Of a stretch of 64,000 nt of DNA, positions 21,132 to 35,016 are shown piece after piece. This stretch comes from a bacterium. Its GTDB lineage: Bacteria; Hinthialibacterota; Hinthialibacteria; Hinthialibacterales; Hinthialibacteraceae. The notes beneath the pieces are model-generated. The model searched no databases. It was not told where the DNA came from and was given only the letters and a program-made list of their open reading frames with translations. Where the stretch lies: positions 1,424,284 through 1,488,283 of the forward strand of contig CAXXMV010000006.1 of the NCBI GenBank assembly GCA_963662285.2, in the 5' to 3' direction. Within the stretch, counting starts at the first letter, position 1, and the number at the start of each line of letters is the position of its first letter. Made by a program: the position numbers and the translations under genes.

Positions 21132-22166
21132 TTATCCCAACAGCTCTTGCAGCATTTTCTTGCCATAGCGCAGCGTTTTTTGCATGTCGGGGACGCCGTC
21201 TTGCTCGAAGGTCAGGTAGCCGGTGTATTCTATGTCGCGCAGAGTTTTGACTACTGCTTTGAAATCCATTACTCCTTCGCCGATCCCTACGAAGACAAGA
21301 CCTTCGCTGTCGATATCGCGGATGTGGGCGTTCATCAGATGATCCTTAACCTTGAGAATGGCCATCGGTGGATATTCGCGCTGCAACTGAATCCAACCGA
21401 TATCCAGATTCATGCCTAAGCGTGGGTCTTTGATGTGATCCCACAGCCGCAGGAAAGCGGTTGAATCGTGTACTAAGGTGTGGGTGTGGTTTTCGATGGT
21501 GAAGCGCAGGCCGTGGTGGGCGGCGCGTTCGACGCAGCCCTTCATGGTATGCACGAAGGTATCCCACACTTGGTCGTAATCGAATCCCTCTGCGATATCT
21601 ATGTGGAACTTCTTACCGGCGCCTGATTCAGCGAAATAGCGCGGCAAGTAGGCGTGCGGTCCGGTCATCTCGCGGGGCCAGGGCGACACGATGTTGATGA
21701 AAGGCGCATTCAGGGTGCGCCCGATTTTGCAGCCCTCCTCGAACACATCCAGGCTGCGGTTGCGGTCGTCGGAGTTGAGACTGGAGAGGTTTTCCACGGC
21801 GGATTGAAAGAGCACAAACTGCGAAACGGCCAGGTTGTGCGAATCAAGTTTCTTCTTCATGTTGGGGATGGTGGAAGGCTGGAGCCAATAGTCTTTGAGA
21901 TCGACTGCTTCTCCGATGATCAACTCGATGGCGTCGAATCCCAGCCCGGCGGTCTGGTCTATCGCCTTATCAAAGGGATAGCCTTTGATGATGCCGCCGT
22001 AGTTCCAACACACGTTGCCCAGTTTGATCTGACCGGGCTTAAAACCGGGGGGGATGAATCTCTTAGGCTTTGCGGCGGCGCCCAATGCGGGAACGGCGCT
22101 GACAGCGGATGCCAGGGCGGCGCTTTGGAGGAATTGTCTACGGTTGGCAGTGGAAGTCGATTTCAT
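21132..22166 (-). CDS. Sugar phosphate isomerase/epimerase (xylose isomerase-like TIM barrel) with a Tat signal
   Basis: The Tat signal is NRRQFLQSAALASAVSAVPALGAAA. The TIM-barrel region is FDAIELI...RFTIENHTHTLV...NLDIGW. Confidence 0.8.
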   Translation of the reverse strand: MKSTSTANRRQFLQSAALASAVSAVPALGAAAKPKRFIPPGFKPGQIKLGNVCWNYGGIIKGYPFDKAIDQTAGLGFDAIELIIGEAVDLKDYWLQPSTIPNMKKKLDSHNLAVSQFVLFQSAVENLSSLNSDDRNRSLDVFEEGCKIGRTLNAPFINIVSPWPREMTGPHAYLPRYFAESGAGKKFHIDIAEGFDYDQVWDTFVHTMKGCVERAAHHGLRFTIENHTHTLVHDSTAFLRLWDHIKDPRLGMNLDIGWIQLQREYPPMAILKVKDHLMNAHIRDIDSEGLVFVGIGEGVMDFKAVVKTLRDIEYTGYLTFEQDGVPDMQKTLRYGKKMLQELLG

Positions 22167-22281
22167 GATTTCTACTCCTTGAAGTGTATCCTTTTGTATG
22201 CAGAATTACTAAACACTACATAAAATACTCGATATTGAAAATCAAAAAGGGCATACAATTTGTTATAATAAGTGGCTTAAT

Positions 22282-22314
22282 CAAGGGCTGACCGCAATGC
22301 GGTCTTGCCCTTGG
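22282..22314 (-). repeat. Solo A-type hairpin repeat
   Basis: The sequence is caagggctgaccgcaatgcggtcttgcccttgg. Confidence 0.8.
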
Positions 22315-22381
22315 CACCCATCTAATGTCGTGTGGGTTTTGTTGTTTTAATATATAACCTAATGTATACATCATACAGTAA

Positions 22382-23386
22382 TTATGCAACGCCAATCCCA
22401 GAGCCATCAGGCATAACGATCACGCCCCGGTCGAGCCGCATTCCCTGGAACGGGTCGTTGCTAAGCAGGGCGGCGCCGTCCAGATCAATGTAATCAACCA
22501 GCGGCGCCAGATGCGCGGCGGCGGTTACGCCCAGGGAACTTTCTATCATACAGCCCAGCATGATGCGCAGGTTGTTGGTTCTGGCTATGTCGATCATCTG
22601 ACGGGCGCGGCGCAGCCCGCCGCATTTAGCCAGCTTGATGTTGATGCCGTCAGCTAAGCCGATCCACTTGGTTATATCCTCGGGGCCGTGGACGCTTTCA
22701 TCCACGATAATGGGGATTCCGGTATGGTTGGCTTGCATGATGCGGCGGTAGCCGTCGTGATCGGCGCCGGGCAGGGGCTGTTCGATCAAGCGCACATTGC
22801 ATTGCTGCATGATGGGAAGGTATTCCAGAGTCTGTTCGGCGCTCCATCCCTCGTTGGCGTCGATGTAGAGCGGCTTGCCGGTTTTCCCGGCGATGGATTG
22901 CAGCGTTTCGAGGTCTTGGCGCCCGCCCACTTTGATCTTGAGAATGGGATAAGGCGCCGCGCGTTCGACTTTCTGCATAACCACATCCAACTGATCCATG
23001 CCGATAGTGAATGAAGAGATCAAACCGCTGAGTTGGGGGATATGCCACATTTGATCCAGAGACGCGTCTTGCTTCTTACCCAGTGCGTCATGCATAGCCA
23101 GATCGATGGCCTGCCAGAGTCCAGTCTCGCCGGGGAATTGCTGGATCAGTTCATCGAGTATGGCATCCACCGGACGCTCTAAGTCGGGTTGTTGAACCAC
23201 CCACTCGTGCGCCAGTTGAGCCATGCGCTCAACCGTCTGCCCGCGGTAGTAGATGGGCGCCCCTTCTCCCAGACCATCGCCGATGCGGATGAACAGGTTG
23301 CTCACCGTGCGCCGCATGCCGCGCGCGATGCCGAATGGATCGCGCAGCTGAAGTTCACGGATGTCTATTTCGATAGGTGGATTCAT
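22382..23386 (-). CDS. Dipeptide epimerase (L-Ala-D/L-Glu epimerase type; enolase superfamily, MR/MLE family)
   Basis: The motifs are ILKIKVGG, YIDANEGW, LIEQPL, IIVDESV and NIKLAKCGGL...MLGCMIESSLG. Confidence 0.82.
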   Translation of the reverse strand: MNPPIEIDIRELQLRDPFGIARGMRRTVSNLFIRIGDGLGEGAPIYYRGQTVERMAQLAHEWVVQQPDLERPVDAILDELIQQFPGETGLWQAIDLAMHDALGKKQDASLDQMWHIPQLSGLISSFTIGMDQLDVVMQKVERAAPYPILKIKVGGRQDLETLQSIAGKTGKPLYIDANEGWSAEQTLEYLPIMQQCNVRLIEQPLPGADHDGYRRIMQANHTGIPIIVDESVHGPEDITKWIGLADGINIKLAKCGGLRRARQMIDIARTNNLRIMLGCMIESSLGVTAAAHLAPLVDYIDLDGAALLSNDPFQGMRLDRGVIVMPDGSGIGVA

Positions 23387-23480
23387 AAGGTATTACTCAT
23401 GATATTAAAACGGAGCGTAGATTGTTCTACGCTCCGTTGATTTGCATGTTGTTGGTGGAGTGGTTTTGAGTGGGTGATTC

Positions 23481-23570
23481 GTGGTGGGCTACGCTACGCT
23501 TTTAGCCCACCCTACTTGCTATTGCATGAGTGGTTTTGATGGGACACGTTTGCGCTTTGTCCCATCCTAC
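23481..23570 (-). repeat. Two tandem C-type hairpins (canonical stem and variant stem)
   Basis: The first is gtggtgggctacgctacgcttttagcccaccctac (23481-23515). The second is gatgggacacgtttgcgctttgtcccatcctac (23538-23570). Confidence 0.85.
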
Positions 23571-23605
23571 CTTTTTACTACATACCACACACTATCCACT
23601 GCACA

Positions 23606-24541
23606 CTATTTCACTGCCTTAAAGAATTCTGCGGCTGATCCGGCGATTCCTTCGGCGTCCAGTTTGTATTCTTTGTACATATCTTCGGGGCTGCCGGATT
23701 GACCGAATTGATCCAGAACTCCCCAGCGTTTAACTGGTACGGGGAATTTCTCTGACGTCACTTCGCAAACCGCTGAACCCAGGCCGCCAATGATGCTGTG
23801 ATCTTCGACGGTGAACAGGCATCCTGTTTCCTTGGCGCATTTTACGATCAATTCTTCATCAATGGGCTTGATGGAATGGATGTTGACGATGCGAGCATCA
23901 ATCTTCTTGGCGGCCAGCAGCTCTTTGGCTTTGAGCGCATGTTGTACGGTTCCACCGGAAGCGATGATGGTCATATCAGCGCCGGGCGCCAGTTCAGCGC
24001 CTTTACCTAATTGGAATTTATAACCCTCGCCATTGACGTCGGGTAGTTTCTGACGGGTTAGACGCAGGTAAACCGGGCCGTCGTGTTGCGCGGCGAAGGC
24101 TACGGCTTGTTTGGTTTCCACTTCGTCAGCTGGTTGAATGACGACCATACCGGGGATAGAGCGCATCAGGCCGATGTCTTCCAGACCCATTTGGCTGTGG
24201 CCGTCTTCTCCGATGCCGATTCCGGCGTGGGTGCCGACGATTTTGACATTGGCTTTGGCGTATCCAACCGAGATGCGGATAGTATCGAAGCGTCCCGTGA
24301 TGAAGCAGGCGAAACTGCATACAAAGGGGACTTTGCCCGATAGAGCCATTCCGGCGCCGGCGCCGATCATGTTGGCTTCAGCGATTCCAAACTCAAAAAA
24401 GCGCTCGGGGTATTTATCGGCGAAGAGGCAGGTCATGGTGGATTTGCTTAAATCAGCATCCAGAACCACAACATTAGGATTGCTCCGCCCGATATCCACC
24501 AAGGCTTCTCCAAAGGCGAGACGAGTTGCTTTTGTAGACAT
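23606..24541 (-). CDS. Transketolase, C-terminal (pyrimidine-binding) subunit of a split transketolase
   Basis: The protein has FGIAEANMIGAGAGMA, GTHAGIGIGEDGHSQ and the C-terminal transketolase fold. It sits directly downstream of the N-terminal subunit gene. Confidence 0.9.
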   Translation of the reverse strand: MSTKATRLAFGEALVDIGRSNPNVVVLDADLSKSTMTCLFADKYPERFFEFGIAEANMIGAGAGMALSGKVPFVCSFACFITGRFDTIRISVGYAKANVKIVGTHAGIGIGEDGHSQMGLEDIGLMRSIPGMVVIQPADEVETKQAVAFAAQHDGPVYLRLTRQKLPDVNGEGYKFQLGKGAELAPGADMTIIASGGTVQHALKAKELLAAKKIDARIVNIHSIKPIDEELIVKCAKETGCLFTVEDHSIIGGLGSAVCEVTSEKFPVPVKRWGVLDQFGQSGSPEDMYKEYKLDAEGIAGSAAEFFKAVK

Positions 24542-24639
24542 ATTATCCTTCCATATCTATAGGAAAATTCTATTAATTTCAGTGTTACCCCGGTATGTCT
24601 GGTTACTCTGGTAGAACCGGGTTTGATCCAGATCAGGAA

Positions 24640-25473
24640 TTATACTTGAGCCAGTTCCTTGAGCGCCTGCTCGGTCTCTTCAGGATTGGGAGTCTTGCCA
24701 TGCCAGCCGACCTGGTTTTCCATGAACGAAACGCCTTTGCCTTTGACGGTTTTAGCCCATATAAGAGTGGGGCGGTCTTTGGTGGCCTGGGCTTCGTCGA
24801 GCGCTTTGATAACCTGTTCCATGTCATGGCCGTTGATGGCGATGACGTGCCAGTTGAATGAGCGCCATTTGGCGTCGATGGGCGTTAATGACATTACGTC
24901 TTCGACATAACCGTCGATCTGGGCGTTGTTGTTATCCAGGATAAGCGTCAGGTTGTTGAGTTTGAATTTGCTGGCGGCCATAACCGCTTCCCAGATTTGG
25001 CCTTCCTGTGATTCGCCGTCGCCGATCATGCAATATACGCGCCAGGCTTTTTTGTCCATTTTGGCGGTCATAGCCATGCCCAGAGCGATGGAGAGTCCTT
25101 GTCCCAATGATCCGGTCGAGGCTTCCATAGCGTTGCAGCGAACGCGGTCGGGGTGTCCCTGGAGGAATGATCCGAATTTGCGCAGATTGATGAGTTCTTT
25201 TTCATCAAAATAACCCGCCTGAGCCAGGGCGGAGTACCATGCCGGGACGCAGTGTCCCTTGGACATGATGAAACGGTCGCGTTCTTCCCATTGGGGATTG
25301 GCCGGATCGTGTTTCATTACTCCGAATAGAAGCGCCGCCGTGATATCCGCGGCGGATAATGAACCACCCGGATGTCCCGAACCGGCTTCAGCCAGCATCC
25401 TGATGCTATTCATGCGAATATTTCGCGCGTGTGATTTGAGCGTACTTATGTCTCTAGTGAGTTCAAAAGCCAT
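24640..25473 (-). CDS. Transketolase, N-terminal (thiamine diphosphate-binding) subunit
   Basis: The motifs are GSGHPGGSLS, SKGH, GSLGQGLS and GDGESQEGQIWEA. Confidence 0.9.
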   Translation of the reverse strand: MAFELTRDISTLKSHARNIRMNSIRMLAEAGSGHPGGSLSAADITAALLFGVMKHDPANPQWEERDRFIMSKGHCVPAWYSALAQAGYFDEKELINLRKFGSFLQGHPDRVRCNAMEASTGSLGQGLSIALGMAMTAKMDKKAWRVYCMIGDGESQEGQIWEAVMAASKFKLNNLTLILDNNNAQIDGYVEDVMSLTPIDAKWRSFNWHVIAINGHDMEQVIKALDEAQATKDRPTLIWAKTVKGKGVSFMENQVGWHGKTPNPEETEQALKELAQV

Positions 25474-26018
25474 TACTGATCCCTTCAGCCTTCTTCTCCC
25501 GAAAGGGAGGAATATTCATTCATGTAATCAGATTTAATTATGATGATATTGACTGAATGTCAATGCGGCAAGAGTGACGGAGCGATTGAATTAAAAAGTT
25601 GCCTGAAGCGTCAGTTGTGCGGTAGTTTTATTAAGAATCGTTTTTAAGCGTATTTAATAGATTATCGAGATGATGTAAGATAGTGAACGGTGTCTATTTG
25701 ATTGGATAGATATGATATTGTTTGACTTAGGCGCAAAATTTGTTTTATCCCGGAAATGATTGCTTATTGATTGACGCAGAATTAAAAAATGTCTGAATCT
25801 GGATGTCCTTGATAAAAGGATACTCTGGATGGGTGAATCTATAATCTGATGTTATCCAAATACAGGGATTCTGAATAGCCTGAAAATAGGAATAGGGCGA
25901 ATGATGAAAAATCCTGGATATCCTGCTAATCCAGGGTATCTTGATTCAGACAAAAAAAATATCTTTAAAATATATTCAAATGCATGTTGAAACTAAAATT
26001 TATTATAAAGGAAAAACT

Positions 26019-26501
26019 ATGATATTTCATCTGAACGATAAAGAGCAATGGCAACCTGTGGTTGATAAATGGCGTGAAGAGGGCAAAGTTATCGTCACCA
26101 CCAACGGAACTTTCGATATCGTCCATGTAGGACATATCCGGCTGATGACCGAAGCCAAAGCGCAGGGCGATATCCTAATCCTGGGATTAAACAGCGACAA
26201 ATCAGTTAAACAATATAAAAGCGAGAAGCGCCCCATCGTCCCCCAGGAAGAACGGGCCAAGTTGATTGAAGCCTTACGCTGCATCGATATGGTGATCATT
26301 TTCGATGAACCGGAAAGCGCCCGCTTCGTCACCGAGGTCAAACCTGATATTCACGCCAAAGATTCAACCTATGGCTATGACCTGATCGAAGCCCCCATAG
26401 TAGCCGAATACGGCGGCAAGATTTATCTGGTCGAAAAAGACGGACATTCCACTACTAATGTTATTCAGAAAATTATTGATGTTTATAAGGATGAGTTGTA
26501 G
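26019..26501 (+). CDS. Cytidylyl/adenylyltransferase family protein, RfaE domain II-like (D-beta-D-heptose 1-phosphate adenylyltransferase type)
   Basis: The region VVTTNGTFDIVHVGHIRLMTEAKAQGDILILGLNSDKSVKQYKSEKRPI..ERAKLIEALRCIDMVIIFDE carries the nucleotidyltransferase HxGH motif. I prefer the ATG at 26019, which follows AAAGGAAAAA. Confidence 0.8.
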   Translation: MIFHLNDKEQWQPVVDKWREEGKVIVTTNGTFDIVHVGHIRLMTEAKAQGDILILGLNSDKSVKQYKSEKRPIVPQEERAKLIEALRCIDMVIIFDEPESARFVTEVKPDIHAKDSTYGYDLIEAPIVAEYGGKIYLVEKDGHSTTNVIQKIIDVYKDEL

Positions 26502-26547
26502 GTAAGGGATGGACTTAATGCTTTCGCTTGTGATTTTGAGTACTACT

Positions 26548-26574
26548 CAAGGGCTGAAAATATTCTGCCCTTGG
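26548..26574 (-). repeat. Solo A-type hairpin repeat (short-loop class)
   Basis: The sequence is caagggctgaaaatattctgcccttgg. Confidence 0.7.
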
Positions 26575-26696
26575 CGTACGCGCCTATTCATGTAGTAGAT
26601 TGATATAATGCATATTATTGAAGGTTCATCTCAAAAGTGATTTGCAAATTATATATTTGCCCGTAAAATATATAATAGTTGTTCATTCCCGCAGAA

Positions 26697-26939
26697 ATGG
26701 ATAAGACGCTGATGAATGCCCTGGACATTATTACAGCGATAGAAAAACTGCCGCAAGATGAAAAACAGTTAGTCATTGATTTTGCGGTTTCTATCAGAGA
26801 AGCAATGTATCTAGCTGCTGACTATTCCCCGGAAGATGAGGAGATGATCGTTGAAGAAGCCAAACTCTGTAAACAAAGGGTAGATGTAAAAGAACATTCT
26901 TCGGCGGATGACTTGCGTAATTCTCTTGGTTTAACCTAA
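26697..26939 (+). CDS. Putative type II antitoxin (small acidic protein upstream of a RelE-family toxin)
   Basis: The ~80-aa acidic ORF ends 10 nt before the toxin gene on the same strand. No specific family motif was recognised. The ATG at 26697 is preferred over the TTG at 26679. Confidence 0.55.
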   Translation: MDKTLMNALDIITAIEKLPQDEKQLVIDFAVSIREAMYLAADYSPEDEEMIVEEAKLCKQRVDVKEHSSADDLRNSLGLT

Positions 26940-26949
26940 GAGCAATTTA

Positions 26950-27210
26950 ATGAGGTTTGTTCACCGCAAAAAATTCACCAAAGGTCTTGAAAAACTCACC
27001 CCAAACCAAAAGAAGAGCGTTGGGGAAGTTATTAAATTATTCGAAGATGATCCTTTCCATCCTAAACTCAATAATCATGCCCTTCATGGTAAACTAAAAG
27101 ATTTGCGATCTATTTCTGTCGGAGGAGATTTACGTATCACTTTTTTTGAAGAAGATAATTATGAGGTGGTCTACCTTGTATGTATTGGAACCCATAACCA
27201 AGTGTATTGA
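26950..27210 (+). CDS. RelE/YafQ-family type II toxin (mRNA interferase)
   Basis: The 86-aa protein has HPKLNNHALHGKLKDLRSISVGGDLRITFFEEDNYEVVYLVCIGTHNQVY. This matches the RelE/StbE/YafQ pattern (H.L.G.l.g.rs..v..d.Ri.f......v.l...G.H..vY). Confidence 0.78.
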   Translation: MRFVHRKKFTKGLEKLTPNQKKSVGEVIKLFEDDPFHPKLNNHALHGKLKDLRSISVGGDLRITFFEEDNYEVVYLVCIGTHNQVY

Positions 27211-27245
27211 AGATTCTTTACATTGGCGCCCCGGTATGATTTCAA

Positions 27246-27899
27246 TCAGGCTGGTTTCATTTTTAGGATTTTTTTGACAAGAAGGTCAACGTTCGTATAT
27301 GGATGCCATGTTCTACTTGATGGATTTGCAGCAGAGTTATGATGAAAATCGTTAATTCTTTCTGCACCTTTAAATGCTTTTTCAAGGTTGGGGTATAACG
27401 AATTAATAATTGATTGATTCTTTTTGTAATCTGGGATATATACTTGTAAATCATGTCTGACTTCATCGTTATCCTTAAATTGTTTTGTTGTATAAGCGAA
27501 ATGAAGAAGAAACCAGAATTCAAAACTGGGAGTTGAAAAAGCGATATTAAAGGTAGGCTTTTTCCCTTTTATATTGTTATTTATACTATTTGCTTTATCG
27601 ATGGCTTTATCGAAAGTTTCATGTGTATCGCGATCAAAAACACACCAAATGTGATCAAACAGTGCTTTATTTTTATTGAGCATTTTTTCTGCATGTTCCA
27701 CAACCTTTATTGGTGCAGAGTCACATTCTTTACCATGGATTTCTATCTGGAGTTGATGGATTTTCCTCTTTTTTCTTAGATCTTTAAAATATTGTGTTTC
27801 GGTCGTCTCTCTTTCGCATACAATCAATATTTTATTACCTGAGAATTTAGGAGCATTTTGAGTGAATTTATTTTTTGCGCGATTTTGATGTCTACTCAT
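27246..27899 (-). CDS. RloB-like protein (TOPRIM-like partner of an AAA ATPase; AbiLii-like)
   Basis: The N-terminal ILIVCERETTETQYFKDL matches the RloB signature (ilIvcEGekTEp.YF). Its ATG overlaps the ATPase stop codon (TAATG). Confidence 0.75.
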   Translation of the reverse strand: MSRHQNRAKNKFTQNAPKFSGNKILIVCERETTETQYFKDLRKKRKIHQLQIEIHGKECDSAPIKVVEHAEKMLNKNKALFDHIWCVFDRDTHETFDKAIDKANSINNNIKGKKPTFNIAFSTPSFEFWFLLHFAYTTKQFKDNDEVRHDLQVYIPDYKKNQSIINSLYPNLEKAFKGAERINDFHHNSAANPSSRTWHPYTNVDLLVKKILKMKPA

Positions 27900-29179
27900 T
27901 AGAAATCAAGCCCCCCCAGGAATGGAATAGCGCCATAGCGTCCCGCCAAGTATCCTTTTTGCAGGGCTTCTTCTTTCCGGGGCTTAAAATCGGTCAGGGG
28001 ATATAAAATAGTCGCGGCTTCTTTATTCTTCTCGGTAAACCAGACTTGGTCGCGTCGCAATATATCCGTATTCAACTGGGTTGTATCATGGGTTGTGAAA
28101 ATTAGTTGAGCGCCATTTTTATTCAACTCCTCGCTGTGCACCATCTCAATCAATTTTCTGAAAAGCATAGGATGTAAATTTGAACCGATTTCATCCAGGA
28201 AAATAGTTTTTCCTAGATTTAGTGAATCTACCAAAGGGCCGAGTAATGAGAACAAAACTCTTGTTCCTGCCGATTCTTTATTTGGAGTTAAATAGACATT
28301 TTTGCCTGTATCATTTTTCTTGTGAAGGAATTTCCATGCTATTAATTCTTCTTTTAATTTCTTAATAAACATATCCATTATTGAATTAGGTTTACTTGTT
28401 GGTGATTCTAAATTACGAAATTCATTCCTTTTCGTTTTTATATCCATAACGCCTAAATCCGCTTGTTTTAATATATTTCTAATGATAATAGACTGTTCAT
28501 TTTTATCATCAATAATTGAAGCGGTAATTTCTGAATTGGATAATGATTCAAAATAATCTAAAAATCGAAAGCAGTTTTTGAACCATTCGTAAACATTACC
28601 TAATTGCCTATGGTTAAATTGAGCGGCAGTCGATAGAAAGAGAGTTTTAAATTTTGTTTTCTCTTTCAGGCTTTCTTTCTCGCCCTTGAGGAATGTACTG
28701 AAATTCCATTCATACTCTTTTTTTTCATCATTAAAAAAACGGTAAAACCATTGCTGGGCTTTCCCATTAGGGTAGGCAATAAGCCATTCCTTATAAACTT
28801 TCTTTTTTTTTATCGCAAATCCATATTGATAACGGATTCCCTCATGAATAAAGATGATTTCGAATTCACTTAGTTCCTTTTCGCTTTTTGAATCAAATCC
28901 AAAAGGAGCAATATCAATTTCATCAAGAAAATTTCTTCGGATTGATTCGTCAACAATTAAATTTCTCATGAATTTTCCGGCTTTGTATAAATTGCTTTTG
29001 CCTGATGCGTTAGCGCCGTAGATGGCTGCGCTTTTTAGTAGTTTTACGTTAGATAATCCTGGCGCTTGGGGATCGATCAGGTGGTTGGGGTGTTCGTTGT
29101 CTTTATTGTTGGCCACCATGCTCAGGGTTTGTTTATCTTTAATGGAACGGTAATTTTTTACTGAAAATTCAATCAACAT
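27899..29179 (-). CDS. AAA family ATPase (AAA_21/ABC-like; AbiLi-like abortive-infection ATPase)
   Basis: The N-terminus is MLIEFSVKNYRSIKD. Walker A is YGANASGKSNL, Walker B is IFLDEIGSNLHP, and the signature end is QLIFTTHDT. Confidence 0.82.
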   Translation of the reverse strand: MLIEFSVKNYRSIKDKQTLSMVANNKDNEHPNHLIDPQAPGLSNVKLLKSAAIYGANASGKSNLYKAGKFMRNLIVDESIRRNFLDEIDIAPFGFDSKSEKELSEFEIIFIHEGIRYQYGFAIKKKKVYKEWLIAYPNGKAQQWFYRFFNDEKKEYEWNFSTFLKGEKESLKEKTKFKTLFLSTAAQFNHRQLGNVYEWFKNCFRFLDYFESLSNSEITASIIDDKNEQSIIIRNILKQADLGVMDIKTKRNEFRNLESPTSKPNSIMDMFIKKLKEELIAWKFLHKKNDTGKNVYLTPNKESAGTRVLFSLLGPLVDSLNLGKTIFLDEIGSNLHPMLFRKLIEMVHSEELNKNGAQLIFTTHDTTQLNTDILRRDQVWFTEKNKEAATILYPLTDFKPRKEEALQKGYLAGRYGAIPFLGGLDF

Positions 29180-29348
29180 TGTACTTGCCTATCAATTTAA
29201 TCGCGATTTCCGCATAAAAACTGCGGATGTATGGTTATAATTTACATATATATCGGATTATGTGCAAGTTTACTTGATCTTTTTTTAGATATTTATCTAA
29301 AATACTCTAATCATTTCTGAGAATATTCAGAATCATAAGTGATAGCAT

Positions 29349-29381
29349 CAAGGGCTGACTGCATTGCGGTCTTGCCCTTGG
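29349..29381 (-). repeat. Solo A-type hairpin repeat in the divergent intergenic region between the ATPase/RloB and pAgo/SIR2 operons
   Basis: The sequence is caagggctgactgcattgcggtcttgcccttgg, preceded by gtgatagcat (the conserved flank). Confidence 0.8.
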
Positions 29382-29509
29382 TGCCAGGCAATATCCTCTT
29401 TTACTGTTTTTTCTATCCAAGTAGATTATTTCGACTCATCATATTTCTAATAATAAATACCATGTTGATGATTATTGAGGTTGCTGTCGGAATTTTTTGA
29501 AACAATTTG

Positions 29510-29553
29510 TTGACATTTATTGTAACAAAGATTATGATTATTAATCTTTGTTA
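29510..29553 (+). promoter_or_regulatory. Sigma70-like promoter candidate for the pAgo operon, overlapped by a perfect 12-bp inverted repeat
   Basis: TTGACA (29510-29515) is followed by a 17-nt spacer and then TATGAT (29533-29538), about 92 nt upstream of the pAgo ATG. The inverted repeat taacaaagatta (29523-29534) / taatctttgtta (29542-29553) straddles the -10 box. Confidence 0.4.
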
Positions 29554-29629
29554 TATTCTATATTCTGTGAAACCGAAAGCAAAATATAGATAAACATTAT
29601 TTGAAAATCATTAATATTGGCGAATTAAA

Positions 29630-31531
29630 ATGAATGATCATAAAAAAATAGCTTTGAATTTCTTACCCATAGAACCACAGAATTTTGAATTCACAGTTTA
29701 TCGCAAGTTAATGATAAATAATGAACAGAGACCTTGTGAAGATGTTTTTAAATCTTCATTACCAAATGAAAAGAAAAATGAACCTTGGCCCAAATATTGG
29801 GTGTCCTTTACACAAAAAGAAGATTATGAAGAATTTTTAGTTAATACTAAAACAAACAATTATTTGACTAGAGAGTATCTTTTTCAACAATTAGTAATGA
29901 ATATCAAGGAGCATATTCCTGAACGACTCGAAAGAAATGAAGAAAAATTCTATAAACGTAGAATATTTTTTAAACTTGAAGAATTTGATATTGGCAAACA
30001 AGTAATATGGCTAGATCCATTTTATTTAAAAAAAACATCCACTTTTGGATTCTTAATTGATTTTTGTTTTATCTCTAATGATGATTCATCACATTCAAAA
30101 GAACGTCAAAAACTATCTCTTAATTTAGATAGTTCCTATCGCTCAAACAAAAATTTCCACCAAGAAAAACTTTATAAAATAAAAAATTTCATTGACATAT
30201 TTCTTGAAAAATTAAATCCAATTTCTGATAATACTGACTTGAACTTAAGGATATCTAACAAATTTTCATGCATTAATTCAAGTACATTAAGTAATAAAAT
30301 CTACAGTTTTGATAATATGAAAACTAATAATTCTCAATTTCAGGGAATCAAAGAATACGGACCCTATCAAAAAAGTAATATTAATATTCACTATCATTTT
30401 ATATTTAAGGAAGAAAATATCGATTTAGGCCGGGATCTATTAAGGGCTTTAAATGGAGAAACATTTAAACAAACTTTTCCAGGAATGGAAAAAATGTTTC
30501 ATATAAAATTAGGAAAGGATAATGTTTCAAAAATAATAATTAATTCATATAATAAAAGTGAAATTGATAAAGCAATCGAATCAATCAACAAATCAGGCTA
30601 TGAAAATAACATTGCTACTTTCATTTTCCCAGAAAAAGATTCAGATTTTTACTATAACCTAAAGAATGTTTTTCTTAATTCTGGTGTTTTAACCCAAGGC
30701 GTTCATATTGAAACCTTAAAAAATACGTCTGGTTTAAAGTGGTCGATTTCAAGTATTGCTCTTCAGTTGTTTTCAAAATCTGGTGGGGTGCCTTGGAGGC
30801 TTAAACCTAGTAATGAAAATTGTTTAATCATTGGAATTGGCAAAGCGCACCATCTGAAAAAAGATAATGGTCGAACTTTAGTTGAAAAATATTTTGCATA
30901 TTCTGTTCTGACAGATTCAAGTGGAAAATATGTTTCTATGGATGTACTTTCTAGTGAAAAGGATGAAAATAATTATCTAAATAGTCTTCAAGCAAATCTG
31001 AAAAAAATTGTAGAAGATTATAAAGATAAATATCAAAAAATCACTCTACATATACCTTTTAAAATACAACTACGAGAACTTGACGCAATAAAGAAAACGA
31101 TTATAAACATAGATTCAGAGAAAGAATTTGTTGTAATCAAAATTGATGATCAGAGTAAATATTTTGGATATAATATAGATGTTAATTCATTTGTGCCTTA
31201 TGAAAGTACTTTGTTAGAACTTTCACAAAATGAATATTTATTATGGACTGAAGGTTTAAATTACCATAATAAAAAAGTGATTAAACGATATTCAAATCCA
31301 CTCCATATAGAATTTTATTATTCAAATAAAAATTTATTAAGTCAGAGTGAAAAGAATTTATATTTACAGGATATAATGAATTTGTCAGGTGCAAGCTGGC
31401 GGGGATTCAATGCAAAGAAACTACCGATATCAATGTTTTATCCCAAGATAATATCACGATTCATAAAAGAGTTTTCAACTCGTAATCTAACAGAGATTAA
31501 TTTTCAAGATTTACCACCTTGGTTTTTATAA
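29630..31531 (+). CDS. Prokaryotic Argonaute (pAgo), catalytically inactive and PAZ-less: an N-terminal N/L1/L2-like region (~240 aa) followed by MID and PIWI
   Basis: The MID pocket pattern is FYYNLK...LTQGV...KWSISSIALQLFSKSGGVPWRL. The PIWI strands are CLIIGIGKAH, KITLHIPFKIQLRELDAIKK, EFVVIKIDDQSKYFGY, YLLWTEG, NPLHIEF and KKLPISMFYPKIISRFIKEF. Positions aligned by eye to three of the four DEDX residues read G, P and K. Confidence 0.85.
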   Translation: MNDHKKIALNFLPIEPQNFEFTVYRKLMINNEQRPCEDVFKSSLPNEKKNEPWPKYWVSFTQKEDYEEFLVNTKTNNYLTREYLFQQLVMNIKEHIPERLERNEEKFYKRRIFFKLEEFDIGKQVIWLDPFYLKKTSTFGFLIDFCFISNDDSSHSKERQKLSLNLDSSYRSNKNFHQEKLYKIKNFIDIFLEKLNPISDNTDLNLRISNKFSCINSSTLSNKIYSFDNMKTNNSQFQGIKEYGPYQKSNINIHYHFIFKEENIDLGRDLLRALNGETFKQTFPGMEKMFHIKLGKDNVSKIIINSYNKSEIDKAIESINKSGYENNIATFIFPEKDSDFYYNLKNVFLNSGVLTQGVHIETLKNTSGLKWSISSIALQLFSKSGGVPWRLKPSNENCLIIGIGKAHHLKKDNGRTLVEKYFAYSVLTDSSGKYVSMDVLSSEKDENNYLNSLQANLKKIVEDYKDKYQKITLHIPFKIQLRELDAIKKTIINIDSEKEFVVIKIDDQSKYFGYNIDVNSFVPYESTLLELSQNEYLLWTEGLNYHNKKVIKRYSNPLHIEFYYSNKNLLSQSEKNLYLQDIMNLSGASWRGFNAKKLPISMFYPKIISRFIKEFSTRNLTEINFQDLPPWFL

Positions 31532-31543
31532 AAGAAGATTAGC

Positions 31544-32596
31544 ATGAATTTTAAGGAAAACGAGATAATTTTTTTATTAGGTGCTGGGGCTAGTAAAGAT
31601 GCAGATATCCCAATGTCTAATGAAATGATTGAAAAAGTTGAAAATTTAATTTTATCTGATAAATTTTGGAAAGAGTTTAGGGATTTTTATTATTTGATAA
31701 AGAGTGCAATTTTTTATGCAGATGGTGTTCAGGGTAAGTTTAATAAAAAAGTTAACTTTAATATAGAGAGATTGTTTAATGTCTTAATTGAACTAGAAAA
31801 AAAAGAAGAACATCCACTATATCCATTTATTGGCCAATGGAATATTAAATTTTCTGAAATTGTAGGTAATGATTATGAGTTAATTAAAAAATTTCAAGAT
31901 TTAATCTTAAGTGAATTAAAAAATTGGATTACGCTAAAAATTAATAGTAACGCAGATTACTATAAAAAACTCAAAGATTTTAAAATAGAGATCAATCATT
32001 CTCTCAGGTTATTTACTCTTAACTATGATTTATGTGTAGAAAAGTCATTGTTATCAGAAGATTTTATTGTGGAACGAGGCTTCAATGAAAATCGCATTTG
32101 GGATTACAAAAAGATAATTGACTTTCCTGCTGACAATACTCCAGATATTTTTCTATATAAGTTACACGGCTCTATTGATTGGGAAAGAGATAAGAATACT
32201 GGAGAAGTCAAATATACTGATTGTAATGCACAAAATCCAGATTTGATTTTTGGAAGCGCCTATAAACTACAATATGTAGATCCATATTTATTTCAATTTT
32301 CTGAATTTAGGCACTACACTCTTAAAGCAAAACTCATAATTGTTGTTGGTTATGGCTTAGGAGATGAACATATAAATGGAATCATAAAGCAAGCGTTGGA
32401 GCAGGATGATTCAAAAAAATTGCTATATGTATCTCCTTCTGCAAATAAAGAAGAAATACAAAAATATCTTGGATTGAACAATGATGATCAATTGGAAACG
32501 ATAAAATCAAGTGCCTCGAATTACTTTCAGAAAGAATTAGAATTGAATAAATTGAAAAACTTCTTTCCAGATGATTCAGATGATTTATGGATGTGA
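31544..32596 (+). CDS. Stand-alone SIR2-like domain protein (SIR2_2 family), the predicted NADase effector partner of the pAgo
   Basis: The motifs are IIFLLGAGASKDADIP, RLFTLNYDLCVE, FLYKLHGSIDW and LIIVVGYGLGDEHIN. The gene starts 12 nt after the pAgo stop on the same strand. Confidence 0.82.
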   Translation: MNFKENEIIFLLGAGASKDADIPMSNEMIEKVENLILSDKFWKEFRDFYYLIKSAIFYADGVQGKFNKKVNFNIERLFNVLIELEKKEEHPLYPFIGQWNIKFSEIVGNDYELIKKFQDLILSELKNWITLKINSNADYYKKLKDFKIEINHSLRLFTLNYDLCVEKSLLSEDFIVERGFNENRIWDYKKIIDFPADNTPDIFLYKLHGSIDWERDKNTGEVKYTDCNAQNPDLIFGSAYKLQYVDPYLFQFSEFRHYTLKAKLIIVVGYGLGDEHINGIIKQALEQDDSKKLLYVSPSANKEEIQKYLGLNNDDQLETIKSSASNYFQKELELNKLKNFFPDDSDDLWM

Positions 32597-32751
32597 ATAA
32601 ATATAGTGATTTTAGTGGATGCTGGTTCAAAAGGGGTGATACGACAATGCCTTTTGTACGTTTGATCTTTTTAATGGATTATTTAAGAATAGTAGTTTTG
32701 TTGTAATGTGAATTGTGATATTACCAGTTGTAGGTAACAACCACACCCCTC

Positions 32752-33555
32752 TTAGAGATAGAAGATGGTGGTGAAGATCAGGTCGGTTATGATGATTAGC
32801 AGGATGGAGAAGACTACTGACCGGGTGGTGGAAACGCCGACGCCTTCTGCGCCGCCTTCTACTGAGAGTCCTTCATGACAGGCCACGATGGCGATAACCG
32901 CTCCGAAACCTACGCTTTTTATGAGTCCTGTGAATAAGTCGGTCAGAGTCAGGCTGGTTATGGTTCCGTTGAGGTATAGTCCCATGGACATGTTCAGATC
33001 GAAAATACCTACCATAAGACCCCCTGATATGCCGATGAAGTCATCAATGATGGTGAGGCAGGGCATCATGAAAACCAGAGCGATGAAACGGGGGACGACC
33101 AGGAAGGGAATCGGTCTAAGCGCCATGGTCTGCAAAGCCATGATTTCTTCGCCGACCACCATAGTTCCCAGTTCGGCGGTGATAGCGGCGCCAACCCGTG
33201 CGGATATCATGATGGCGGTTATCAGCGGCCCGATTTCGCGGCAGATAGTAACGCCGACCAGCCCGGAAACCATGTTGCCCGCTCCAAATTTATTGAGCTG
33301 ATAAGCGCTCTGCATGGCCAGGATCAAGCCGATAAGGAAATTTATTAGTATGAGAATTGGAAGCGAGCGTAAGCCCGCTTCCAGCATCATCGAAGTTGTC
33401 GCCTCGCGGCGGATGGTTTTGGATTTCGAAAATGGAGCAATTACGACATTATACATAACAGCGGAAAAAAGAATCCATAACCGTCCAATATAAATAAAGA
33501 CGCCCGCCAGTCTTGAATTCAGCATTCCGTTAGTTTTGTCTATTTCTGCTTTCAT
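32752..33555 (-). CDS. mlaE: MlaE/Ttg2B-family ABC transporter permease
   Basis: The multi-TM protein has REIGPLITAIMISARVGAAITAELGTM and GGAEGVGVSTTRSVV, which are typical MlaE motifs. Confidence 0.85.
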   Translation of the reverse strand: MKAEIDKTNGMLNSRLAGVFIYIGRLWILFSAVMYNVVIAPFSKSKTIRREATTSMMLEAGLRSLPILILINFLIGLILAMQSAYQLNKFGAGNMVSGLVGVTICREIGPLITAIMISARVGAAITAELGTMVVGEEIMALQTMALRPIPFLVVPRFIALVFMMPCLTIIDDFIGISGGLMVGIFDLNMSMGLYLNGTITSLTLTDLFTGLIKSVGFGAVIAIVACHEGLSVEGGAEGVGVSTTRSVVFSILLIIITDLIFTTIFYL

Positions 33556-33558
33556 AAA

Positions 33559-35016
33559 TTAAAAGTTATTGAGTTCCATTAACCAATCGTTGGTTGAATA
33601 AGGCGTTGCGTTGACTGATGTTAGCCCCATTGCGTTAAGTAATTGGGTGTAAACGCTGAGATAGCCATAACGGGTTGTGACGACGTTAGTCTGCGCTTCA
33701 ACCAGTTCGGTCAAGGCCTGGGTTACATCCAGGCTGTCGGCTAAACCTTCTTCGAAAAGGTTCAAGAAACGTTCGTGGTTTTCCTTGGCCACGATCTCTG
33801 CTTCCAGAGAAATTTCCATGTTGCGTTGTTCTTCCTGCAATGCTAAAGCCGATTGCTCAACCAGTGTTGATATGGTTCTGATAGCGTCTTCATAGCGTTT
33901 TTGCTGAGCGTTAAGTTGGGCTTTGGTGCGTTTCATTTTGGCTATTTTTCTGCCGCCTTCAAAAATGGGAATTTCTACCTGGAAGGATAGGGCCCATTCT
34001 TCTTGTTCAAATTCGACGCGCCCGCTTTCATTGAAACCCCAACGACCGCCAGCCGAAGCGCGGGGAGCGAATTCACCGCGTGCGATGTTAACCGACTCGC
34101 TGGTCTGGTCTACTAATAGAGCAGCCACTTTGATGGAAGGATGAGTCTCCCTGGCTATAGCAAATAGTTTTGAATAATTCTGCACAACATCAATGTTTTT
34201 GGATGATGGATTAAAATTAGCTAATTTATCAATTTGGAATGAATAGAGGTTGTCGATTGGGTTGCCCATGATCTGGTTTAGTTTCACTTGAGAATTTTGC
34301 AGAGCAATTTCGGATGAAACTACATCCCGCAGAGCTGAAGAACGGGATAATTGAGCGCGCAATACATCGGTGCGGATTCTCATGCCAACCTCAAAGTTGG
34401 TGGTAGCGCTGTTAAGTTGTTTGTCCGCTAAAGCCAGGCGTTGTTTTTGAACATTGAGTAGTTCCTGAGAGCGTAGGACGTCAATATACGCAACAACGGT
34501 ATTATAAACTACGGCCTGTTCCTGACCGGTCTCCTGCCATTTGGCTGCTTCTTGCTTAAGTTTCGATAGTTTGATTTGGCCGATTACGGAGCGGTCGAAG
34601 ATCAATTGGGATACGTTGATGCTATTGATGTAATTGGCGCCGGAGAAACCAAGTGCGCTTGGATCAAAAATGCCTGCTAAGGGAGAGTCTGCGGGCATAT
34701 CAAAATCATAACGACCAGAAGTGACTTTACTCATGCTGTTTTGAAATGAAACTTGCGGCCAATAGTAGCTATAAGCTTCGCTTTTGCCGTGTTTAGAGGC
34801 TTGTGAATCGAAACGTACGGCCATCAGTTCCCGGTTGTTTTCCAGTGAATTTTGGACTGCGTCGGATAAGGTGAGAACAGGGCGGTCGTCGGCAGTGGAT
34901 TGAATTGGATCAATCACATTAAGAGTCAAAGAAAAGATGAAAATGCTGACAATAGAAATGCAATATATAGTTGATTTGATTTTATCAACTATTGATTTCG
35001 TGCGTATAAGATGCAT
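33559..35016 (-). CDS. TolC-family outer membrane efflux protein
   Basis: The protein has a signal/TM segment. It also has two coiled-coil/beta repeats with LTLSDAVQNSLENNRELMA, PQVSFQ, and a Gln/Leu-rich heptad pattern typical of the OEP family. Confidence 0.82.
   Translation of the reverse strand: MHLIRTKSIVDKIKSTIYCISIVSIFIFSLTLNVIDPIQSTADDRPVLTLSDAVQNSLENNRELMAVRFDSQASKHGKSEAYSYYWPQVSFQNSMSKVTSGRYDFDMPADSPLAGIFDPSALGFSGANYINSINVSQLIFDRSVIGQIKLSKLKQEAAKWQETGQEQAVVYNTVVAYIDVLRSQELLNVQKQRLALADKQLNSATTNFEVGMRIRTDVLRAQLSRSSALRDVVSSEIALQNSQVKLNQIMGNPIDNLYSFQIDKLANFNPSSKNIDVVQNYSKLFAIARETHPSIKVAALLVDQTSESVNIARGEFAPRASAGGRWGFNESGRVEFEQEEWALSFQVEIPIFEGGRKIAKMKRTKAQLNAQQKRYEDAIRTISTLVEQSALALQEEQRNMEISLEAEIVAKENHERFLNLFEEGLADSLDVTQALTELVEAQTNVVTTRYGYLSVYTQLLNAMGLTSVNATPYSTNDWLMELNNF

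Follow-up and report, generated by a model that had tools for sequence, protein, structure and literature searches.

A 6.2-kb AT-rich stretch in the chromosome of a bacterium of the family Hinthialibacteraceae carries a toxin-antitoxin (TA) pair, an AbiL-type pair and a prokaryotic Argonaute (pAgo) gene followed by the gene of a SIR2-domain effector. The stretch occupies positions 26545-32750 of a 64-kb window, the whole piece of DNA analysed here, which covers positions 1,424,284 to 1,488,283 of contig CAXXMV010000006.1 and supplies the coordinates used below. We consider it likely that this part of the chromosome is a small defence islet, lying between conserved blocks and built from at least two independently moving units that were acquired horizontally. 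A preliminary description of this DNA had read it as one horizontally acquired defence island with three stacked modules. All three modules are present at the positions given there, and the reading of the genes as horizontally acquired defence functions was retained; the single island was not. The comparisons reported here indicate a composite, in which the TA and AbiL pairs together and the pAgo and SIR2 genes together are separate mobile units, at least two in number.

We distinguish two units because the TA and AbiL pairs recur together in another context on a metagenome contig (L144), the pAgo-SIR2 cassette stands without them in 80 genomes, the G+C content of the two parts differs, and an element resembling repetitive extragenic palindromic (REP) sequences lies between them. 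The genes of the islet, a promoter-like site and the block shared with L144 are as follows.

26697-26939, plus strand: antitoxin candidate of no known family, 80 aa if started at 26697 or 75 aa if started at 26712
26950-27210, plus strand: YafQ/RelE-family toxin, 86 aa (PF15738, 3.6e-08; TIGR02385 RelE_StbE)
27246-27899, minus strand: RloB/AbiLii, 217 aa (PF13707, 1.6e-40; PADLOC AbiLii, 4.8e-24)
27899-29179, minus strand: AAA_21 ATPase/AbiLi, 426 aa (PF13304, 7.8e-37; PADLOC AbiLi, 5.8e-97, and AriA, 9.7e-36)
29510-29538, plus strand: promoter-like site upstream of the pAgo gene (TTGACA, 17 nt, TATGAT; 11 of 12 positions, the best in the region; a consensus match only)
29630-31531, plus strand: Argonaute of the long-B clade, 633 aa, predicted to be catalytically inactive (PADLOC pAgo_II, 6.9e-207, whole model; PF02171)
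31544-32596, plus strand: SIR2_2 effector of the bAgaS type, 350 aa (PADLOC Aga_SIR2 class II, 4.5e-119; PF13289)
26662-29127: TA and AbiL unit common to L144 (83.7% nucleotide identity over 2475 bp; the similarity sets in at about 26616-26662)

L144 is a contig of the Joint Genome Institute (JGI) of 2809 bp (JGI 3300083231, Ga0675942_0063629) that ends inside the AbiLi gene. The antitoxin candidate, YafQ, RloB and AbiLi genes stand on it in identical order and spacing, and to the left of this block lie a gene and, after it, another REP family. The gene is orthologous (82% nucleotide identity) to a ribbon-helix-helix gene located on contig C8 in our genome. Since this left neighbour differs, the TA and AbiL block is found in two contexts in related genomes. 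At its location in our genome (C8:1074582-1075162) the neighbour's counterpart belongs to a pair of ribbon-helix-helix antitoxin and RelE/ParE-like toxin genes.

The identity to L144 forms a mosaic. At the nucleotide level it is 95-100% in RloB (segment 27259-27758), 73-90% in the TA genes and 50-92% in AbiLi, with 50-76% in the middle part of that gene. The encoded proteins are 92% (RloB, 91.7%), 84% and 75% (the two TA proteins) and 68.5% (AbiLi) identical. Over 400 nt RloB matches L144 at 95-100%, against 82-88% for shared core genes. Judged by these identity levels, the near-identity of RloB (a segment at 98-100%) compared with 82-88% elsewhere points to a recent exchange, and the combination of a fast-diverging AbiLi with a slowly diverging RloB suggests that recombination took place in the recent past or that the ATPase is under diversifying selection.

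Relatives of the pAgo-SIR2 cassette occur in at least 198 species-representative genomes, from which we examined the best 80 loci, spread over more than 15 phyla (L043-L122). The SIR2 gene lies directly downstream of the pAgo gene in 79 of these; in the one other locus the sequence stops before this could be seen. No AbiL or YafQ homologue was found within 10 kb of the cassette in any of the 80 genomes; the neighbours of the close homologues are type I or type III restriction-modification systems. The pAgo itself was not found in the 40 relatives of our bacterium that were searched, including 19 genomes of the same family, and the island genes do not form part of the core synteny, which accords with the earlier proposal of horizontal acquisition. 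Its best public homologue is 59% identical. In a maximum-likelihood tree the window pAgo falls into an 11-member clade (Shimodaira-Hasegawa-like approximate likelihood ratio test, SH-aLRT, 99) together with seven Bacteroidota, one Chlorobiota, one member of the Peregrinibacteria and one unplaced metagenome-assembled genome. Near-identical copies cross phylum boundaries in this tree, as with those of Peregrinibacteria and Salinivirgaceae, and a copy on a Methylomicrobium plasmid is near-identical to those of Desulfobacterium and Geobacteraceae. Neither a relative of pAgo nor the conserved segment of RloB turned up in the searches of viral contigs (2.9 million in the case of pAgo).

Composition of the stretch

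The genome assembly, which is binned or draft, consists of 8 contigs (7.29 Mb, 44.0% G+C, estimated contamination 3.5%). Positions 26545-32750 have a G+C of 0.311 against 0.440 for the 7.29-Mb genome, and just 5 of 7239 overlapping 6.2-kb genome windows (mean 0.440, standard deviation 0.028) are equally low, all of them from this stretch or from a single further region (C2, about 758-764 kb). In 500-bp windows the G+C lies at 0.25-0.38 between 26.5 and 32.5 kb and at 0.41-0.58 on both sides. The G+C at third codon positions (GC3) is 0.19 for pAgo, 0.23 for SIR2, 0.26 for RloB, 0.31 for YafQ, 0.35 for AbiLi and 0.39 for the antitoxin candidate, compared with 0.465 +/- 0.08 in 3027 long open reading frames (ORFs) of the genome. 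The windowed G+C and GC3 values are thus extreme for the genome and confirm the compositional deviation proposed earlier, and the spot values that had been counted by hand were reproduced exactly (0.267, 0.250, 0.450 and 0.567). The contrast drawn from those counts was sharpened because the left flank is unusually GC-rich for this genome. Its genes at 21.1-25.5 kb (21132-25473), which encode a TIM-barrel protein with a Tat signal, an MR_MLE enzyme and a split transketolase (sugar metabolism), have a G+C of 0.53-0.58, corresponding to the 97th-99.7th percentile of long ORFs.

The stretch is not uniform internally. The TA and AbiL unit has a G+C of 0.345-0.383 (about 0.36) and the pAgo-SIR2 unit one of 0.274 (about 0.27), and the step between the two values coincides with the internal REP element. 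Across the pAgo-SIR2 family, 71 of 72 loci (98.6%) drawn from the 80 genomes have a BPAS-type cassette with a lower G+C than its 10-kb flanks (mean difference -0.091), and over the same 72 loci the G+C of the cassette follows that of the host (r = 0.85). At -0.17 relative to the genome and -0.21 relative to the flanks, the difference observed here is among the largest in the family.

The other region on C2, which has the lowest G+C in the genome (C2:755000-770000, down to 0.265), is a glycan-synthesis cluster and not a defence island. It contains genes for an epimerase, an HldE-like kinase/adenylyltransferase, FkbM methyltransferases, a GT2 glycosyltransferase and a DDE transposase.

The two units and their predicted functions

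The pAgo protein has 633 aa against the 617 positions of the PADLOC pAgo_II model, of which it matches 2-617, and the solved structures nearest to it are those of AfAgo and EcAgo. In an alignment with 25 homologues its PIWI part shows no invariant or near-invariant Asp after residue 330, and Y341, K345, Q356 and K383 are invariant. We take these four residues to form the 5'-phosphate pocket of the MID domain, an assignment that follows the spacing of these residues in RsAgo. As far as the alignment indicates, the PIWI part is without the DEDX catalytic tetrad and the 5'-end pocket of MID is kept, which is the pattern of a BPAS Argonaute. The gene lies directly upstream of the SIR2_2 gene on the same strand, and the two are homologous to a functionally tested pair, GbBPAS (Song et al. 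2023, PMC10620215).

The comparison with GbAgo is limited to the N-terminal part printed in the supplement of that paper, and over GbAgo residues 2-393 the alignment is colinear with 32% identity (E = 3e-58). The SIR2 protein is 40% identical to GbbAgaS over its full length (E = 1e-80). Its catalytic Asn is kept as N160 in the motif TLNYD, aligned with N155 of GbbAgaS, and the motif HGSIDWER is conserved between the two proteins. In GbBPAS, the SIR2 protein alone is toxic, pAgo binds and neutralises it, a plasmid with a CloDF13 origin triggers NAD+ loss and cell death, and the SIR2 substitution N155A abolishes the NADase toxicity/plasmid-triggered effect (PMC10620215). The islet cassette resembles this system in its two-gene order, with pAgo upstream and a gap of 12 nt, in the retained Asn and HGSIDWER motif, and in a PIWI part without a conserved catalytic Asp next to intact MID pocket residues. 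It differs in standing on a distant branch, being 32-40% identical to the tested pair and no more than 59% identical to any public sequence, and in having a much lower G+C than its own host. By homology with GbBPAS, pAgo in the second unit (about 29.4-32.75 kb) would restrain the SIR2_2 NADase until guides direct pAgo to the nucleic acid of an invading plasmid or phage, at which point SIR2 may be released and deplete NAD+.

The first unit (about 26.62-29.3 kb) combines a YafQ/RelE-type toxin, predicted to be an mRNA interferase, and a rare antitoxin candidate with a convergent AbiL pair. The toxin scores above the curated cut-offs of both of its models (34.0 bits against 30 for PF15738, 32.5 against 27.9 for TIGR02385). 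The YafQ family is expanded in this genome to seven copies including the one in the islet, and the six others are 43-56% identical to it (C6:237746, C6:645293, C3:435235, C3:368913, C2:802001 and C1:899824). A promoter-like site lies upstream of the TA pair, and the antitoxin candidate ends 10 nt upstream of the toxin gene. Searches for a DinJ/RelB-type or other antitoxin family gave no match for this candidate in Pfam (E <= 1), NCBIfam or PADLOC, and its relatives amount to only 5 cluster representatives among 1.84 billion proteins. Solely from its position we infer an antitoxin role for the ORF at 26697-26939. Two weak paralogues of it (29-33% identity) are present elsewhere in the genome, where they do not stand beside the YafQ paralogues. 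The pair is like type II TA systems of the RelE/YafQ kind, such as DinJ-YafQ, in its small upstream ORF, its 10-nt gap and its 86-aa toxin, and unlike them in an antitoxin that falls outside DinJ/RelB and any known family.

In the AbiL pair an AbiLi-type AAA_21 ATPase adjoins an AbiLii/RloB protein, and the RloB gene overlaps the AbiLi stop codon by 1 nt. The arrangement is that of AbiL of Lactococcus (AbiLi and AbiLii), in which an AAA_21 ATPase gene is followed by an overlapping gene of the RloB family, and its architecture is also related to PARIS (AriA/AriB) and to the ATPase-Toprim nucleases of the OLD family. RloB is presumably Toprim-like. In contrast to the lactococcal system, the pair is chromosomal here and not plasmid-borne, and both here and in L144 it is linked to a convergent YafQ-type TA pair; the much faster divergence of the ATPase (68.5% against 91.7% amino acid identity for RloB) is a feature of the two copies compared here. 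A search at E <= 1e-20 gave at least 7987 homologues of AbiLi; of those outside this genome the closest is 57% identical. The ABC-type AAA_21 ATPase may serve as a sensor that is translationally coupled to RloB as a nuclease effector, and the mode of action, by homology, would be abortive infection of the OLD/PARIS kind. A more remote possibility is that the TA pair and AbiL make up one functional four-gene unit that is exchanged by recombination between related genomes.

Flanking blocks, hairpins and mobility functions

The genes on either side of the islet and the sequences at its junctions are the following.

26019-26501, plus strand: left core flank, stand-alone RfaE-domain-II-like adenylyltransferase (rfaE-II), 160 aa (TIGR02199, 3e-46)
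32752-35016, minus strand: right core flank, pair of OEP (TolC-like) and MlaE (PF02405, 3.1e-72; PF02321, 1.1e-57)
32752-33555, minus strand: MlaE
33559-35016, minus strand: TolC-like OEP
26548-26573: REP-like hairpin, degenerate, 26-nt class, stem CAAGGGC/GCCCTTG (2 BLAST matches in the genome; -18.6 kcal/mol)
29331-29381: typical REP-like element between the two units, a 32-nt hairpin with conserved flank (172 BLAST matches elsewhere in the genome; -29.1 kcal/mol)
32597-32751: right junction, an AT-rich spacer of 155 bp without a repeat, containing a supposed B'-like motif (32727-32748)

On the left, rfaE-II is host-like in composition (G+C 0.455, GC3 0.525) and has orthologues of 67-81% identity in 11 of 12 same-family genera. 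The left block further comprises an MR_MLE enzyme gene, tktC and tktN, which are divergent from rfaE-II; their order is kept in 4 of 9 other genera, with tktC-tktN alone in a fifth. The relatives differ downstream of rfaE-II, and in three of them a gene near that point has its orthologue here 230 kb away (C6:1218-1220 kb). The spacer between tktN and rfaE-II (25474-26018, 545 bp) is itself AT-rich (G+C 0.34). Two more repeats of other dispersed kinds lie in it (25785-25831 and 25901-25957) and form a 24-nt imperfect inverted pair.

On the right, mlaE is intact. Of the 12 related genera that were examined, 5 have the OEP-mlaE pair, with mlaE after the OEP gene. In the two genera whose neighbouring genes were scanned against Pfam, neither mlaF nor mlaD lies beside the pair, and the gene downstream of it encodes a nucleoside phosphorylase in one and a pilin in the other. 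Because the pair recurs in other genera, with no mlaF or mlaD beside it in the two that were scanned, the orphan state of mlaE predates the islet, and the connection that had been drawn between the two falls away. A search with MlaE recovered a metagenome contig (L039) on which this protein is 94% identical, with 88% identity at the nucleotide level. The homology to L039 stops exactly at the mlaE stop codon, a different REP family follows, and the contig ends 73 nt past the stop. Further REP-like families, with dozens of copies in our genome, are carried by L039 (1317-1389) and L144 (227-300), and both assemblies break at or near REP-like repeats. The left and right core blocks are each conserved and are never adjacent in the relatives sampled. 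By gene order in these relatives, the islet is located at a synteny breakpoint.

The preliminary description had the island bounded by hairpins. The left and middle hairpins exist and fold, and they belong to a family dispersed over the whole genome, with two size classes of 26 and 32 nt and 9 copies in the window. The genome contains the stem CAAGGGC...GCCCTTG 376 times, where the frequencies of the two heptamers predict 1.9 occurrences. The mean absolute G+C difference between the 2-kb flanks of the REP-like copies is 0.0356, compared with 0.0359 at random positions (p = 0.39), and the copies are if anything depleted beside AT-rich DNA (2.7% against 5.1%). As a genome-wide background with no link to G+C steps or AT-rich DNA, the hairpins do not define the islet, and the part of the claim that made them island borders was dropped. 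The family is like REP elements, bacterial interspersed mosaic elements (BIMEs) and their REP-associated tyrosine transposases (RAYT, Y1 type) in being short GC-rich palindromes with hundreds of intergenic copies and two loop classes, and in the presence of Y1-transposase genes elsewhere in the genome; these RAYT-like genes lie on other contigs than this one. Here the palindromes are a feature of the whole-genome background and do not mark out the islet.

At the right edge, a copy of the B' repeat had been proposed and was rejected by exact and mismatch searches, a profile hidden Markov model (HMM) and an edit-distance null. The spacer at 32597-32751 has no BLAST match elsewhere in the genome, and the motif at 32727-32748 has no other genome copy within 3 mismatches. 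It is 5 edits away from the 19-nt B' consensus, and so loose a match is expected about 0.02-0.03 times per 155 bp. The profile HMM of 43 B' copies gave no nhmmer match to it even at E <= 1000, and its folding energy of -3.3 kcal/mol amounts to no real hairpin. On these sequence comparisons the motif is best treated as a chance resemblance. Repeats specific to the borders of the islet were not found, the right border being without any repeat.

The earlier remark that no integrase, transposase or tRNA is visible proved correct for the window. No tRNA was found in its 64 kb, and there was no match in it to the six families searched, namely tyrosine recombinase (PF00589), Y1 (PF01797), rve (PF00665), DDE_Tnp_1 (PF01609), IS110 (PF01548) and resolvase (PF00239). 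The nearest recombinase or transposase match on the contig is about 430 kb away. We found no att-like direct or inverted repeat flanking the islet beyond AT-rich chance matches, and an Rfam scan of 24.5-34 kb returned just two sub-threshold chance matches. When the DNA of the whole island was compared with 72,556 plasmids and 50,697 phages, the only matches were of 100-150 bp and lay in the ATPase gene. The marks of a classical genomic island or integrative element (an integrase or transposase, a tRNA or att site, flanking direct repeats) were absent from these searches. Elsewhere in the genome an rve-family transposase ORF of 393 aa is found with identical scores at 18 sites on C1, C2, C3, C4, C6 and C8; these 18 identical ORFs look like one active insertion sequence (IS), all copies of which were resolved in the assembly.

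Origin of the islet

If all three modules had arrived in one transfer, as a single pre-assembled 6.2-kb island, this would account for seven contiguous genes that are all AT-rich and lie between two core blocks. We regard such an event as improbable in view of the 0 of 80 genomes with AbiL or YafQ homologues within 10 kb of the cassette, of the different context of the TA and AbiL genes in L144 (which ends inside AbiLi and shows nothing beyond it), and of the drop in G+C at the internal REP element, where about 0.36 gives way to 0.27. Three of the four TA and AbiL proteins, moreover, have public relatives with 75-92% amino acid identity, against none above 59% for pAgo. There is similarly little to be said for genes that are long resident and vertically inherited, with a low G+C that reflects a constraint intrinsic to defence genes. 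Under such an explanation one would expect that the G+C of BPAS cassettes follows that of the host (r = 0.85) and lies below it in nearly all cases, that a host REP element lies inside the islet, and that the divergence of the TA and AbiL genes from L144 resembles that of the core, all of which is observed. It is made unlikely by the failure to find pAgo in 40 relatives, 19 of them from the same family, by a pAgo tree that mixes phyla and has near-identical copies in unrelated taxa, by the recent exchange indicated by RloB (95-100% against L144 over 400 nt, with the core at 82-88%), and by a G+C gap of -0.17 to -0.21 that is among the largest in the family. Very improbable, in our judgement, is an assembly artefact in which foreign low-G+C DNA was joined into the contig, possibly at short REP repeats. 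The genome is binned or draft, in 8 contigs with 3.5% estimated contamination, and a repeat is present at two of the three junctions. The stretch is, however, flanked on either side by host sequence within a contig of 1.9 Mb, and contains a bona fide host REP element within its AT-rich DNA, and the independent assembly of L144 reproduces the TA and AbiL arrangement and carries REP families of this genome. A misjoin at a 32-nt repeat is unlikely because the assembly resolves 18 identical IS copies and hundreds of REP copies.

Several observations also weigh against an islet put together from two or more such acquisitions. An empty site did not turn up in any of the 40 related genomes, which are all of other genera, and the insertion events themselves are not demonstrated; in these nearest genomes the synteny around both flanks is already broken. 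The pAgo tree cannot prove transfer between phyla. Because AT-richness is partly a property of the BPAS family, low G+C is a weaker sign of recent arrival than it would otherwise be, and we treat it as supporting evidence and not as proof. For the first unit, the identity to L144 (84%) is similar to that between the core and its metagenome relatives (82-88%). This level agrees equally well with transfer and with a block that a common ancestor already had and that was later rearranged, and vertical inheritance with subsequent loss may apply to this unit.

With horizontal acquisition of at least two units as the preferred reading, incoming DNA would most likely have entered a variable intergenic site by recombination and not through integration functions of its own. 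It is doubtful that REP-containing spacers act as landing pads, through recombination or RAYT-assisted entry, for defence cassettes without mobility genes. Of the three islet junctions, two have a REP copy at or near them. L144 also has one, immediately beyond the left end of its TA and AbiL block, but it is of a different REP family. The islet shares with defence islands and variable-region hotspots that lack mobility genes its clustered immune genes, its deviant composition and its position between core blocks, and the neighbours of the same cassette elsewhere are also defence genes (type I and type III restriction-modification). It differs from them in being very small, with 7 genes, and hotspot behaviour is not demonstrated for it.

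The islet is a clear but ordinary one. BPAS, AbiL and RelE/YafQ are all known families, and current understanding is left unchanged. It provides a clean, well-delimited example of independent cassettes stacked in one variable intergenic site without an integrase, and the catalogue gains from it a BPAS cassette that is divergent, together with an AbiL pair and a YafQ toxin whose antitoxin family is practically unknown. Possibly of wider use are the AT-richness of BPAS cassettes (71 of 72 loci), which were not found in 2.9 million viral contigs, and an AbiL ATPase that diverges far faster than its RloB partner.

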